A program made the translations under genes and the position numbers. Shown here in pieces: positions 24,737 to 55,412 of a stretch of 64,000 nucleotides of DNA. Location: positions 74,709-138,708 of the forward strand of contig JAWAFZ010000001.1 in assembly GCA_038890155.1 (NCBI GenBank), in the 5' to 3' direction. Position 1 is the first letter of the stretch; each line of letters opens with the position of its first letter. The DNA is from Candidatus Caldarchaeum sp. GTDB taxonomy: Archaea > Thermoproteota > Nitrososphaeria_A > Caldarchaeales > Caldarchaeaceae. The notes below the pieces were generated by a model that had not been told where the DNA came from, did not search any database, and saw only the letters and a list, made by a program, of their open reading frames with translations.

Positions 24737-25562
24737 CCTCCCGCAGTATCTCCTCTGTCTCGACCTTCTTAACTTCCTGAAGACGTCTTGCAGTACCGCC
24801 AGTCTCGAGCATGAGGACTTCAGCCATTATGCTCAGGGCAATCTCCTCGGGCTTCTCCGCACCTATGTCGATGCCGCAGGGTGAAGAGATCTTGCTGAGG
24901 TGTTTGGAGTCGAGCCCCATCCTAAGAAGCGTTTCTATTACGATGCCGGCCCTCTTCTTGCTGGCTATGAGACCGACGTACCACGCCCCGCCGTCCAAGG
25001 CTTTCTTGATGTACTTGTGGTCTAGCTTGTGCATCGTCGACACCACGGCTGCCGTGCGTTCGTCAACCCTTACATCCGTCAAGTCCGGGTCTACGCTGTA
25101 CTGGTCTACCTTGTCGGCCCGCTTGAACATGTTCTCAGGGTCTGCGACCACGACTCTGTAGTCGAGCATCTTGCCTAGCTTCGCTAGGCTCTCGACTATC
25201 TCGCCGTGCCCCACGAGAAGCAGCTGCTTCTTAGGCAGGACCGGTTCGAGGTAAACCTCCATCGAGCCTCCGCATGGCACTCCCGTTCCACGGAGCTCGT
25301 CCTCCATCTCCAAATAGATCGTCCTGCCTTTGGCCTCCTTCAAGGTCTTTAGGGCTTCCTGCATCACGGTGGTCTCGACGCAGCCTCCTCCAACCCATCC
25401 GAACAAGCCTTTTCCGTCTTCTAGGATGATTGCCTTCGAGCCGACTTTCCCCGAGGTGTGTCCGAATGTTTTGACGACCGTGGCTATGCAGAACTTCTTG
25501 CCCTCGGCCAAAAGCTCGGAGACCTTAGTGTAGAACGTTAAGTTGTCCAACCCGGGATGCAA
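24705..25562 (-). CDS. xdhC: XdhC/CoxI-family molybdoenzyme maturation protein
   Basis: XdhC_CoxI N-terminal domain plus XdhC Rossmann domain (LLLVGHGEIV); 285 aa. Confidence 0.75.
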   Translation of the reverse strand: MHPGLDNLTFYTKVSELLAEGKKFCIATVVKTFGHTSGKVGSKAIILEDGKGLFGWVGGGCVETTVMQEALKTLKEAKGRTIYLEMEDELRGTGVPCGGSMEVYLEPVLPKKQLLLVGHGEIVESLAKLGKMLDYRVVVADPENMFKRADKVDQYSVDPDLTDVRVDERTAAVVSTMHKLDHKYIKKALDGGAWYVGLIASKKRAGIVIETLLRMGLDSKHLSKISSPCGIDIGAEKPEEIALSIMAEVLMLETGGTARRLQEVKKVETEEILREATGERVGPVC

Positions 25563-25603
25563 AAGGTTCGCTAAAATATAAGCTATTCGATCATGTTTGA
25601 GGT

Positions 25604-31715: not shown

Positions 31716-32285
31716 TTATTCCTCCTCAACCCACTCCCAAAACCTTCTCCTAGGCTGCGGGGGAGCTGGCCTGGGTGTCATCAGCTCCTTGACTCCAGCC
31801 GTCACCAGGGAGGAGGCTGCGGGCGTTAGGAAGATTAGGACGAAGTCGAGAGGGCCTTCGAGGAGGATGGTGGACGAGACCCATGACAGGTAGTGCACCC
31901 AGTTCACCGCCCCGGGCAGGCGTGGCAGGACGTACATCGACAACCCTATGAGGGCTAGGTAGACTAGCGACGATGTTATTAAGGCTGGCGGGATGGATGT
32001 TTTGGCCCTCCTTGAAAGTAGGCCCATCACCACGCCTGCGGCAGCCCACGACAGGAGCGGGGCTGGACCAAGCTTCACCGCGTTCCCGCTGGGAGCTAGG
32101 GTCGACTCCAAGCCGAGGGCTGAGGAAAGGGGTGTTAGGAGGGTTGAAACGCTTGACAGCACGACTGCCAGCACCGACACCTGGAAGCTTGACGGCGGGA
32201 TTGTCTGACCGGCTAGGCTTGATAAGACGAGGCCGGCCAGCACCAGCGTAGACAAGCCTGCTGCAGAGGCTGTTAGGGTGTTCAC
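31716..32285 (-). CDS. Integral membrane protein of unknown function
   Basis: About 5-6 predicted TM helices, Ala/Leu/Ser-rich, Pro/Arg-rich C-terminus; no recognisable motifs. Confidence 0.5.
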   Translation of the reverse strand: MNTLTASAAGLSTLVLAGLVLSSLAGQTIPPSSFQVSVLAVVLSSVSTLLTPLSSALGLESTLAPSGNAVKLGPAPLLSWAAAGVVMGLLSRRAKTSIPPALITSSLVYLALIGLSMYVLPRLPGAVNWVHYLSWVSSTILLEGPLDFVLIFLTPAASSLVTAGVKELMTPRPAPPQPRRRFWEWVEEE

Positions 32286-32378: not shown

Positions 32379-32831
32379 TTATTCGACCCTTACCTTCACA
32401 CCCTTGGGCGTTGCGATGGATGCTTTGACGAGAAGCACTCCCGCCTCGTAGCGGGCCTCTACCTTCGAGGGTTCGACAGGTCTCGGAAGCCTTACGACTC
32501 GGCGGAAACCCCTACCGTGCGTGAAGGGGTAGAGTCTCGAGAAGGCTGGAGGAGGAGTCATGTATTCGCCGACGATGGTGATAGTCGAGTCGTCGACGCT
32601 GATGTCTATCTTCTGTTTATCGCAGCCTGGCATCTCGACGGCGACGTACAGTTCTTGTCCTGAGACGGTGTAGTCGATTTTCGGGGTCCTGTAGTCCCCG
32701 ACCGGTGTTTCGAGAAAGGTTGTAGAAGATTCGAAAGCCTCCCTCATCCTGTCCTCGATATCCTTGGCCAGCCGGCGGAAGAATTCATCCCACTTGGAGT
32801 CGCTCACGGATGTAGATATGTTAAGCAACAT
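32379..32831 (-). CDS. Small heat-shock protein Hsp20/alpha-crystallin family
   Basis: Alpha-crystallin domain (ELYVAVEMPG..., GVLLVKA) and 150 aa length. Confidence 0.85.
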   Translation of the reverse strand: MLLNISTSVSDSKWDEFFRRLAKDIEDRMREAFESSTTFLETPVGDYRTPKIDYTVSGQELYVAVEMPGCDKQKIDISVDDSTITIVGEYMTPPPAFSRLYPFTHGRGFRRVVRLPRPVEPSKVEARYEAGVLLVKASIATPKGVKVRVE

Positions 32832-32845
32832 ATAAAAATAAAACC
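32832..32845. promoter_or_regulatory. Shared AT-rich TATA element in a 26-bp divergent intergenic region (hsp20 <-> AN1-S2P)
   Basis: TATAAAAATAAAA lies between start codons that are only 26 nt apart. Confidence 0.45.
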
Positions 32846-32857
32846 CGCCTAACCAAG

Positions 32858-33613
32858 GTGTTGACTCGTTGCTACGTATGCGGGGTGGAGGAGCTTCTAC
32901 CGTTTCGCTGCAGCTACTGCTCGGGATTGTTCTGCCCAGAGCACCGCCTTCCGGAGAAGCATGGATGCGGGGGAGGACGGCTGGCGAGAAACCCTGCGGA
33001 GCTTACCTCAAGGAGTTATGAGGCTCCTCGGATGGTAAGTGGTAAAGGCTATCGAGCCCCACTCTCCAACGAGCTGTTCAGCATGGTTGTGGCCTGTTTA
33101 ACGGTCTGCTTGTCGGGCCTCAGCCTCCTCGGATGGCCGCCGCTTCAGTCTCCTCCGATGCTATTCTTGATATCCGGCTTCGCAGCCTCCTTCATAGGAC
33201 ATGAGCTGGCCCACAAAATCACAGCCGTCCGGAGAGGGCTTTCGGCTTCTTTCAGGCTCTTTATACCCGGCTTGTTCGCCACGCTGCTCACGGCCGTCCT
33301 GCCCGTTCCATTCAAGGTGATAATGCCTGGAGCCGTAGTCGTAGCCGGTCGCCAGACCTTCCGAGACTTGGGCTTGATCGCTTTGGCAGGCCCAGCTTTC
33401 AACATGGCCTCAGCGGCGTTGTTCATAGTTCTATCCCGGATTTTGGGGTCGTGGCTGCTAGACGCCTTGGCCGCCGTCAACAGCTTCATGGCTTTCTTCA
33501 ACCTGCTTCCGATCTTCCCGCTGGACGGTGAGAAGGTGTTGAGATGGAGCAGAGTACTATGGGCCGTGTCTTTCGCCCTGTCCACGGCGTTGTTTCTGTT
33601 GATGAGGCTGTAA
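32858..33613 (+). CDS. AN1-type zinc finger fused to a site-2 protease (M50 family) intramembrane metalloprotease
   Basis: N-terminus C-X2-C-X9-C-X2-C-X4-C-X2-H-X5-H-X-C matches the AN1 finger exactly. HELAHKITAV (HExxH) and NLLPIFPLDGE (LDG) in TM helices. GTG/TTG start. Confidence 0.8.
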   Translation: MLTRCYVCGVEELLPFRCSYCSGLFCPEHRLPEKHGCGGGRLARNPAELTSRSYEAPRMVSGKGYRAPLSNELFSMVVACLTVCLSGLSLLGWPPLQSPPMLFLISGFAASFIGHELAHKITAVRRGLSASFRLFIPGLFATLLTAVLPVPFKVIMPGAVVVAGRQTFRDLGLIALAGPAFNMASAALFIVLSRILGSWLLDALAAVNSFMAFFNLLPIFPLDGEKVLRWSRVLWAVSFALSTALFLLMRL

Positions 33614-33660: not shown

Positions 33661-33993
33661 ATGACTGTGATGAAGGCAAAACAAGCTCCTAAAACTCGTT
33701 CCGAGAGGACGAGGATTTATAAGTATAGGGTCACGGTGCTGGAGGAGCCTCCCGAGACTCTTGACGGGTTCAAGATCTTCGGGCTTGAGGTGAAGCTGGG
33801 GAAAGGGAGGCACGTCGACTTTGCTCCCAACCTTCGGGTGCTTGATGTGGAGGCCACTCAAGAGCCTCTGCCCATGGACGTGGAGGTCAACGCAAAGTAC
33901 CACAAGGTTGAGAACAAAACGGTAATAGTAAAGAGGCGTTCGCTTCTCTTCTCTATCGTGAAAGTTGAGAACACTACTTCCCAGCTTCTTTGA
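33661..33993 (+). CDS. Hypothetical protein (about 110 aa)
   Basis: ATG-initiated portion of ORF 33544..33993; coding-like codon usage, unlike the overlapping antisense ORF. Convergent with aIF2-alpha, 20-nt overlap. No recognisable family. Confidence 0.35.
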   Translation: MTVMKAKQAPKTRSERTRIYKYRVTVLEEPPETLDGFKIFGLEVKLGKGRHVDFAPNLRVLDVEATQEPLPMDVEVNAKYHKVENKTVIVKRRSLLFSIVKVENTTSQLL

Positions 33994-38651: not shown

Positions 38652-38738
38652 CGCCGGGGGTGGGATTTGAACCCACGCGGCCCGTGAAAGGCCACAGGCT
38701 CTCCAGGCCTGCCCTATACCAGGCTTAGGGACCCCGGC
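38652..38738 (-). tRNA. tRNA-Ser (anticodon GGA), type II with long variable arm
   Basis: Hand-folded cloverleaf: acceptor GCCGGGG/CCCCGGC; D-stem CCTA/TAGG; anticodon stem CAGGC/GCCTG with loop CUGGAGA; 18-nt variable arm; T-arm GTGGG-TTCAAAT-CCCAC; discriminator G. No encoded CCA. Confidence 0.85.
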
Positions 38739-55358: not shown

Positions 55359-55412
55359 CCATCAGAAAAGCCCTCGACGTCTATATAAGCATGCAAACAA
55401 CCCTGTACCCCC

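Follow-up and report, generated by a model that had tools for sequence, protein, structure and literature searches.

The window (the whole stretch of 64,000 nt of Candidatus Caldarchaeum DNA that was analysed) contains a gene in which an AN1 zinc finger is fused to a site-2 protease (S2P; M50) and which is transcribed divergently from a gene for a small heat-shock protein (Hsp20). Both the fusion and the divergent pair had been described in an earlier note on this DNA, and both were confirmed. The reading that we favour, with a probability of roughly 60%, is that of a minimal S2P carrying a tethered cytoplasmic AN1 binding finger, the gene of which shares a generic bidirectional promoter with hsp20. 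The protease belongs, as an unremarkable member, to an archaeal family that has been catalogued before. Indeed, the fusion is not new, as it is named already in NCBI and UniRef records: protein P0001 of Candidatus Caldarchaeum, which is 100% identical to the protease, carries the NCBI name "AN1-type zinc finger domain-containing protein". The features of the locus are compiled in Table 1.

Table 1. Features of the Hsp20/AN1-S2P locus, with positions given in the coordinates of the window.
Feature	Position	Strand	Remarks and basis
Hsp20/alpha-crystallin small heat-shock protein	32379..32807	-	142 aa from revised GTG start; Pfam
Divergent spacer, putative bidirectional core promoter region	32808..32860	.	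53 nt; alignment, geometry
Putative BRE-like purine-rich stretch AAGCAACA	32823..32830	+	directly upstream of TATA box, protease side
AT-rich TATA element TATAAAAATAAAA	32831..32843	.	direct reading
AN1-zinc-finger::S2P (M50) intramembrane metalloprotease gene	32861..33613	+	250 aa from TTG; Pfam, start conservation
AN1 zinc finger, residues 5-37	32870..32968	+	eight zinc ligands C5, C8, C18, C21, C26, H29, H35, C37
Basic disordered linker, ~30 residues, from finger to first transmembrane helix	32969..33061	+	pLDDT <50 for residues 47-65 (AlphaFold)
Minimal S2P membrane core, residues 69-251, without PDZ or CBS domain	33062..33610	+	AlphaFold model
HELAH (HExxH) zinc-binding/catalytic motif, residues 115-119	33200..33214	+	near cytoplasmic end of second transmembrane helix; direct reading
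NLLPIFPLDG (NxxPxxxxDG), residues 215-224	33500..33529	+	carries third zinc ligand Asp223; direct reading

An AN1 finger is linked to a minimal S2P core

Both domains of the protein scored above their Pfam cut-offs: zf-AN1 (PF01428) matched residues 5-39 with 43.2 bits (cut-off 27.9), and Peptidase_M50 matched in two stretches with 36.7 bits (cut-off 27.2). The profile found is that of AN1 and not of a generic treble clef, which the earlier note had named as the result that would speak against its assignment. The exact AN1 spacing that it had claimed can be read directly as C5-X2-C8-X9-C18-X2-C21-X4-C26-X2-H29-X5-H35-X-C37 and agrees with the pattern by which we defined AN1 fingers, C-X2-C-X9-12-C-X1-2-C-X4-C-X2-H-X5-H-X-C. 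In an alignment of the family, the eight zinc ligands are invariant or nearly so. AlphaFold modelled the finger with a pLDDT of ~90, and the model could be superimposed on the AN1 domain of Cuz1 (5ij4) with a TM-score of 0.72 and an rmsd of 2.3 A, and on 1x4v with an rmsd of 1.3 A. As judged from this model, the finger is predicted to have the AN1 fold.

When compared with the sequences in the PDB, the finger matched best ZFAND1 (E-values of 4.7e-7, for 1wys, and 1.3e-5; also 7yab) and Cuz1 (5ij4; E 5.7e-5), and ZFAND5 in proteasome complexes was also among the matches. These eukaryotic proteins share the AN1 finger with identical ligand spacing and act in proteotoxic stress. They combine it with UBL or A20 domains in soluble adaptors for p97 or the 19S particle of the proteasome, whereas the archaeal finger is tethered to a membrane protease. 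In light of these matches, the finger might serve as a docking site that connects the protease with the 20S proteasome and its AAA+ unfoldase, PAN or Cdc48, so that intramembrane cleavage would be coupled to extraction and degradation, and the limitation of the AN1-S2P family to TACK and Asgard archaea would suit this idea. However, the likeness to ZFAND1 and Cuz1 is confined to the generic AN1 core, and neither a PAN, a Cdc48 nor a proteasome gene is a neighbour at any AN1-S2P locus examined, and we regard such docking as very unlikely. We likewise give very little credence to a more far-reaching version, according to which the finger of TACK and Asgard S2Ps would be a forerunner of eukaryotic ZFAND-type adaptors, coupling the protease to the Cdc48/PAN unfoldase and the proteasome for an ERAD-like clearance of damaged membrane proteins, with Hsp20 recruited in Caldarchaeales. 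That the closest relatives of the finger are eukaryotic proteasome/p97 adaptors and that AN1-S2P proteins are found in both Asgard and TACK archaea nonetheless gives it a modest bearing on the origin of eukaryotic AN1 proteins.

The linker that connects the finger to the membrane varies in length and sequence across the family. The S2P core, in contrast to the poorly modelled linker, was predicted with a pLDDT of ~90 or more and consists of helices and two beta hairpins. The HExxH and LDG motifs noted earlier are both present, i.e. as HELAH and as N-x2-P-x4-D-G (including the LDG). Across 28 family members, H115, E116 and H119 as well as N215, P218, D223 and G224 are invariant, and in the model both motifs fall within membrane helices or at their ends. 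The top fold match in the PDB was 3b4r, the S2P of Methanocaldococcus jannaschii (MJ0392), with a probability of 1.00 and an E-value of 3.7e-3 but a weak TM-score of 0.38/0.43; by sequence, the two are matched with an E-value of 0.015. Both proteins are minimal archaeal S2Ps whose transmembrane helices bear the HExxH and NxxPxxxxDG motifs, but they share only ~20% identity, their folds agree modestly, and the M. jannaschii enzyme has no AN1 finger.

The HExxH motif is followed by K/R residues. The cytoplasm is predicted to contain the N-terminus and the basic linker as well as that end of the second transmembrane helix at which HExxH is located; the finger would then be on the side from which the active site is entered. 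Considering architecture and topology, the finger, on its flexible and basic tether, most likely serves to bind peptides or proteins. It may catch a partner protein or the tail of a substrate and hand it to the protease; alternatively, it could hold the protease near a partner protein. Such a role would parallel that of the PDZ or CBS domains of other S2Ps: in RseP (PDZ) and SpoIVFB (CBS), too, a domain outside the membrane selects substrates for the S2P core or controls access to its active site, but the accessory domain differs, being a cytoplasmic zinc finger in the archaeal protease.

The association of AN1 and S2P recurs in three arrangements

The finger-protease architecture is present in Caldarchaeum, Bathyarchaeia and Thor-, Hel- and Heimdallarchaeota. 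In the Hodarchaeales protein P0085, AN1 is located at the C-terminus, and in two closed Heimdall genomes an S2P gene, the product of which belongs to the same subfamily with 36% identity, is followed by a separate, neighbouring AN1 gene. Since N-terminal fusion, C-terminal fusion and adjacent separate genes all recur, the association between AN1 and S2P is robust. The standalone AN1 genes of Nitrosarchaeum and Halobaculum have no protease neighbour, indicating that archaeal AN1 fingers are not exclusively partners of proteases. For one partial AN1 protein, the annotation is that of a rhomboid protease.

These arrangements bear on the possibility that the finger regulates or gates the protease. 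It could plug the enzyme in an autoinhibitory manner, or it could be a switch that is labile to redox conditions, zinc or heat and that, on unfolding, would open the cytoplasmic entrance of the protease; zinc-containing anti-sigma domains and the Hsp33 switch would be analogous. A cysteine-rich finger with two predicted zinc ions and a tether on the active-site side would be suited for this purpose, PDZ or CBS domains outside the membrane are known to gate other S2Ps, and in Caldarchaeales the partner gene encodes a heat-shock protein. However, the placement of the finger relative to the protease is not confident in the AlphaFold model, which thus provides no confident docking. Moreover, the finger is found in trans as a separate Heimdall gene and at either terminus of the fusions, which is more easily reconciled with a binding partner than with a plug that must be positioned precisely. 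Gating is therefore considered improbable.

Burroughs, Iyer and Aravind (Mol Biosyst) reportedly associated prokaryotic AN1 fingers with membrane peptidases already in 2011 and proposed that the finger binds peptides rather than acting in ubiquitin signalling. The systems reported there resemble the present one in that an AN1 treble-clef finger is fused to, or encoded beside, an archaeal intramembrane peptidase, and nothing essential is different; the pairing with Hsp20 in Caldarchaeales and the three arrangements (N-terminal, C-terminal and split) are the local details here. Our literature search returned no paper on the AN1-S2P family. To our knowledge, neither a site-1 protease nor an anti-sigma factor exists for S2P in archaea, and we know of no substrate for any archaeal S2P. 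A built-in cytoplasmic binding finger would provide a practical handle for finding S2P substrates.

Revised start codons and a probable shared TATA box

According to the earlier note, the start codons of the two genes are only 26 nt apart. This is true only of the longest ORFs, which for hsp20 comprises 32379..32831 (- strand) with an ATG at 32829-32831 and for the protease gene 32858..33613 (+ strand; 251 aa) with a GTG one codon before TTG 32861. However, the Hsp20 orthologues at the related loci L003, L004, L005 and L043 start at a position corresponding to codon 9 of the longest hsp20 ORF (MSDWPRWDEFF, MESAPDWDEFF, etc.), L001 and L002 have an ATG at this codon, and the eight codons upstream are poorly conserved, save AGCAACAT beside the TATA box. 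On the other side of the spacer, the alignment revealed that the protease start conserved among relatives is TTG 32861 and not GTG 32858. Public gene calls agree with the shorter versions of both proteins (142 aa for Hsp20 and 250 aa for the protease). On these grounds, ATG 32829-32831 and GTG 32858 were rejected as starts of hsp20 and of the protease gene, respectively. Homologue N-termini and public gene calls thus argue that translation most likely starts at GTG 32807 and TTG 32861, i.e. 54 nt apart, leaving a spacer of 53 nt. For annotation, the case illustrates that longest-ORF starts can create impossibly short divergent spacers.

An AT-rich promoter shared by the two genes had also been proposed, and this part holds although the 26-bp geometry does not: one TATA box is very probably common to both genes. 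Counted from its centre, the octamer TATAAAAA (32831-32838) is 26.5 nt away from TTG 32861 and 27.5 nt from GTG 32807. Its exact sequence occurs once in the window compared with 0.55 occurrences expected and is therefore not significant by itself. However, when seven spacers from Caldarchaeales were aligned, both starts and the TATA box proved to be conserved, with TATAAAAA kept in six of the seven; this conservation and its distance of ~26-27 nt from either revised start allow the octamer to be regarded as a credible TATA box. AT-rich octamers in the Caldarchaeum genome usually start 29-36 nt upstream of start codons. On the protease side, the purine-rich stretch AAGCAACA, which corresponds to Hsp20 codons 1-3 in the longest-ORF call, is a candidate BRE: AG(C/G)AA(C/G)N directly precedes TATAAAAA in 6/7 relatives, while the remainder of the stretch varies. 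A BRE on the Hsp20 side is not evident.

Two possible operators or palindromes in the spacer were discarded as chance occurrences. The 7-nt inverted repeat ATATGTT/AACATAT (32816-32833) is not kept in L001 and L002, which are ~90% identical, and GTTAAGC...GCCTAAC, which was seen by eye, is not conserved. An Rfam scan detected no structured RNA near the locus.

Archaeal bidirectional promoters with one TATA box are known from Pyrococcus furiosus (PMC6640164) and Thermococcus kodakarensis (bioRxiv 10.1101/2020.01.31.928960), where the divergent TSSs are 49-52 bp apart. The present spacer resembles these BRE-TATA-BRE promoters in that a single TATA box is located midway, with starts 54 nt apart around TATAAAAA; the difference is that their distances refer to TSSs, whereas ours are derived from start codons on the assumption of leaderless mRNAs. 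Both genes would accordingly be transcribed into leaderless mRNAs initiated from a BRE-TATA-BRE bidirectional promoter, a layout that would permit, but does not imply, common regulation of the protease with Hsp20. A TTG or GTG start on a leaderless mRNA is unusual.

The promoter arrangement is not specific to the Hsp20/AN1-S2P pair. Similar divergent spacers of 53-54 nt with a single TATA box were found in the window at 25551-25603 (XdhC/MoeA) and at 55359-55412, the latter separating genes for a short-chain dehydrogenase and ribosomal protein S13, which are functionally unrelated. From these cases, the shared-TATA layout can be regarded as the likely default for close divergent genes in the Caldarchaeum genome. 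Since the layout is routine in the window and corresponds to a published generic promoter, sharing of the promoter is no evidence for a functional module, and a shared TATA box should not be taken as such when this genome is annotated.

Among the lineages examined, Hsp20 adjoins AN1-S2P only in Caldarchaeales

The earlier note had interpreted the gene pair as a co-regulated module for proteotoxic stress. Of this proposal, the divergent pair and the likely shared TATA box stand, whereas the promoter layout is generic and adjacency to hsp20 is restricted to Caldarchaeales. In its strict form, the proposal holds that Hsp20 and AN1-S2P form a dedicated, co-induced module, in which heat or misfolding would activate the promoter and the finger would recruit damaged proteins or regulators; such a module is possible but in our view unlikely. 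In its favour, eukaryotic AN1 proteins are linked to stress, and a single TATA box is located midway between both starts. However, one TATA box could hardly hold two pre-initiation complexes at once, and as these would exclude each other, sharing could equally cause interference. Furthermore, in the more distant relatives L004, L005 and L043 the spacer is 72-73 nt long, and in L004 and L005 each gene has an AT-rich box of its own.

Conservation of gene order was considered in the same context. Down to a protease identity of 44%, the two genes remain a divergent pair in each of the ten Caldarchaeales loci examined, and rearrangements directly flank the pair but never split it (a DNA ligase gene is present or absent upstream, and TauE or CRISPR-Cas genes are found downstream). 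However, the neighbouring genes are syntenic too, the region being kept as a block (AspRS-tRNA-binding-TM189-(ligase)-Hsp20-S2P), and conservation of the pair is therefore not above background. Adjacency wherever the fusion occurs, as a dedicated module would predict, was not observed: no hsp20 gene was detected within ~4 kb of AN1-S2P at the loci examined in Bathyarchaeia and in Thor-, Hel- and Heimdallarchaeota, nor within this distance of the AN1-less S2P homologues examined. The search for hsp20 relied on tblastn, on scanning 20 neighbouring ORFs with Pfam profiles and on an HMM derived from seven Hsp20 sequences of Caldarchaeales, with which all ORFs of 48 loci were compared. A role of the protease in heat or proteotoxic stress is accordingly treated as a hypothesis that is specific to Caldarchaeales, and the generic shared promoter is retained as the preferred explanation for the gene pair.

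Our literature search yielded nothing relevant on the small heat shock protein of Caldiarchaeum. The protein matched the HSP20 profile of Pfam with 40.6 bits (cut-off 20.8). An additional match to the ArsA_HSP20 profile (26.3 bits) overlaps this stronger one and reflects a related model rather than a separate feature. With the NCBIfam equivalog NF041800, "archaeal heat shock protein Hsp20", it scored 56.6 bits and thus below the cut-off of 140, which assigns it to the Hsp20 superfamily but outside that orthologous group.

An AN1 finger precedes a minimal site-2 protease

ORF calling in the region 32379-33613 returned two divergent ORFs, one encoding an Hsp20/alpha-crystallin protein and the other a site-2 protease with an N-terminal AN1 zinc finger (AN1-S2P; Table). 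The HMM search on which the earlier note had staked its AN1 assignment supported both domains: residues 5-39 matched Pfam zf-AN1 with 43.2 bits (cut-off 27.9) and the protein also matched Peptidase_M50 with 36.7 bits (cut-off 27.2). Direct reading of the finger as C5-X2-C8-X9-C18-X2-C21-X4-C26-X2-H29-X5-H35-X-C37 reproduced the AN1 spacing exactly. The identity and anatomy of AN1-S2P are established. The Hsp20 protein scored too low for the NCBIfam equivalog of the Sulfolobus-type "archaeal Hsp20".

The protease is 100% identical to a Candidatus Caldarchaeum sp. (Aigarchaeota) protein (P0001), which already bears the NCBI name "AN1-type zinc finger domain-containing protein". Both Pfam domains occur together in about 40 clusters of the protein collection, and genome matches came from Caldarchaeum, Bathyarchaeia, Thorarchaeota, Helarchaeota and Heimdallarchaeota. 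AN1-S2P is an ordinary member of a family already catalogued. The finger is missing from remoter S2P homologues of 200-240 aa in Thermoplasmata, Halobacteria, DPANN lineages, Pyrobaculum and other groups; therefore, AN1 is an addition to a widespread minimal archaeal S2P.

Table. Features of the Hsp20/AN1-S2P locus, comparison spacers of the window and loci in other genomes
Feature	Position	Strand	Length	Remarks
AN1-S2P, longest ORF	32858..33613	+	251 aa	
HELAH (HExxH) of AN1-S2P	33200-33214	+		sequence reading
NLLPIFPLDG of AN1-S2P	33500-33529	+		sequence reading
Hsp20/alpha-crystallin, longest ORF	32379..32831	-		Pfam 40.6 bits, cut-off 20.8
Hsp20/AN1-S2P divergent spacer	32808-32860		53 nt	starts at 32807 and 32861
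XdhC/MoeA divergent spacer	25551-25603		53 nt	central TAAAATATAA
Short-chain dehydrogenase/ribosomal protein S13 divergent spacer	55359-55412		54 nt	central TTATATA
ORF just downstream of protease	33670-33993	+	~107 aa	conserved, Caldarchaeales only; no Pfam match
Predicted membrane protein	31716-32285	-	189 aa	no Pfam/NCBIfam match; conserved in Caldarchaeales
Hodarchaeales/Heimdallarchaeota loci of recurrent gene order	L055 3001-3930; L053 3229-3831 and 4001-4237; L054 2127-2717 and 3001-3132			

The finger as a probable cytoplasmic binding module

An AlphaFold model of AN1-S2P built from a 28-sequence alignment reached a mean pLDDT of 88, with the finger at about 90, a well-defined membrane core and a disordered linker (residues 47-65, pLDDT below 50). 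The best fold matches in the PDB were the M. jannaschii S2P 3b4r (probability 1.00, E 3.7e-3, TM 0.38/0.43) and two AN1 fingers, Cuz1 5ij4 (TM 0.72) and 1x4v (rmsd 1.3 A). The positive-inside rule, applied to the basic linker and to the K/R residues that follow HExxH, predicts a cytoplasmic location for both the finger and the active-site end of the second helix. The finger most likely serves as a flexibly tethered cytoplasmic module for binding peptides or proteins, and would hand a substrate tail or partner protein over to the minimal S2P at its cytoplasm-facing active site. The zinc ligands, HRLPExHxC, H115/E116/H119 and N215/P218/D223/G224 are invariant or nearly so in the alignment. That the finger acts as a gating or redox switch appears improbable. 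By sequence, the closest solved chains are ZFAND1 (1wys, E 4.7e-7; 7yab) and Cuz1 (5ij4). A ZFAND-like adaptor role towards Cdc48, PAN or the proteasome is the least probable of the readings we weighed.

In the Hodarchaeales homologue P0085 the N-terminal finger is absent and a C-terminal AN1 lies behind extra hydrophobic segments. In two closed Heimdallarchaeota genomes the orthologous locus encodes an S2P from the same subfamily (36% identical to the window protein) with an AN1 gene of its own behind it. The link between AN1 and S2P is robust, and its occurrence as N-terminal fusion, C-terminal fusion and split neighbours argues for physical cooperation of finger and protease. This agrees with Burroughs, Iyer and Aravind (2011), who reportedly described AN1, B-box and LIM fingers in prokaryotes as partnering membrane peptidases. 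One partial AN1 protein carries a rhomboid protease annotation. Nitrosopumilales and Halobacteria commonly have standalone AN1 genes, and no protease neighbored them at the two loci examined (Nitrosarchaeum, L051 3141-4228; Halobaculum, L052 4001-5149). Each of these two adjoins a short-chain dehydrogenase gene, maybe by coincidence.

A 53-nt spacer of generic layout

The earlier note had the two start codons 26 nt apart, a distance that had to be revised to 53 nt on the basis of orthologue starts, start-codon conservation and public gene calls (Hsp20, 142 aa; protease, 250 aa). Hsp20 orthologues of remoter Caldarchaeales begin at window codon 9 (MSDWPRWDEFF, MESAPDWDEFF, MDRSSDWDEFF), which is GTG in the window and ATG in the two closest relatives; the eight upstream "codons" vary freely among relatives, save AGCAACAT adjoining the TATA box. 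The protease start kept in all seven relatives is TTG 32861 (ATG in HR01). With these starts, the distances from the centre of the octamer TATAAAAA (32831-32838) to the two start codons are 26.5 and 27.5 nt. Genome-wide, AT-rich octamers typically begin 29-36 nt before a called start, indicating mostly leaderless mRNAs; from the longest-ORF ATG of Hsp20 the box would begin just 12 nt upstream, outside this range. An inverted repeat abutting the box (ATATGTT/AACATAT, 7 nt, 32816-32833) is not kept in the closest relatives and is probably due to chance.

In this genome, TTG and GTG are frequent among called starts of seemingly leaderless genes (window 32861; L046, L049, L050), and six of the seven Caldarchaeales have TTG as protease start. 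Such usage is unusual, since leaderless translation in general favours AUG.

A single central TATA-like box within a 53-54-nt spacer also marks two further divergent pairs of the window (Table), which suggests that bidirectional promoters have a preferred minimal length in this genome. The same geometry has been described for Pyrococcus furiosus, where one BRE-flanked TATA box directs divergent start sites 49-50 bp apart in vitro, a divergence that the authors stress is mechanistic and implies no function (PMC6640164), and for Thermococcus kodakarensis, with divergent start sites predominantly 52 bp apart at a shared TATA box (bioRxiv 10.1101/2020.01.31.928960). Promoter sharing by Hsp20 and AN1-S2P is an instance of a property generic to this genome. 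In remoter Caldarchaeales (L004, L005, HR01) the spacer measures 72-73 nt, with two separate AT-rich boxes in L004 and L005; therefore, the single shared box is a recent compaction.

Adjacency to Hsp20 is confined to Caldarchaeales

The proposal of a co-regulated proteotoxic-stress module of Hsp20 and AN1-S2P is supported in part: the domains are real and the pair is kept in every Caldarchaeales locus examined (window, L001-L005, HR01, L046-L048), down to 44% protease identity, with rearrangements directly beside it (gain or loss of DNA ligase upstream, and downstream either TauE or CRISPR-Cas genes). The wider block AspRS-tRNA-binding protein-TM189-(ligase)-Hsp20-S2P is, however, syntenic as well, so retention of the pair does not exceed background, the promoter layout is generic, and no Hsp20 gene was found within ~4 kb of AN1-S2P or AN1-less homologues at the loci examined outside Caldarchaeales. 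Neighbors there are mixed (FAD oxidoreductase, topoisomerase VI B, Cbf5, glycosyltransferases, MFS transporters, RHH protein). A dedicated module is unlikely, and conceivable for Caldarchaeales only.

In HR01 (L043 5358-8756), CRISPR-Cas genes (Csa1, RAMP proteins) following AN1-S2P replace the aIF2-alpha cluster, so that synteny breaks off right behind the pair. The ~107-aa ORF behind the protease shares ~20 nt with the 3' end of the convergent aIF2-alpha gene; a 149-aa version starting at 33544 runs into the 3' end of the protease gene and is probably over-extended, given that the alignment with distant orthologues begins only at about residue 41. In the window, the predicted membrane protein gene directly follows Hsp20 on the same strand; in remoter relatives a DNA ligase gene lies between them. 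A single tRNA gene (38652-38738, minus strand) is the window's only Rfam match at gathering threshold.

Hodarchaeales and Heimdallarchaeota share the recurrent order Fibrillarin-Nop56/58, 60-aa RHH gene, S2P and AN1, glycosyltransferase, in which AN1 is either a C-terminal fusion to S2P or a separate gene directly downstream, and the small ribbon-helix-helix gene lies directly upstream on the same strand.
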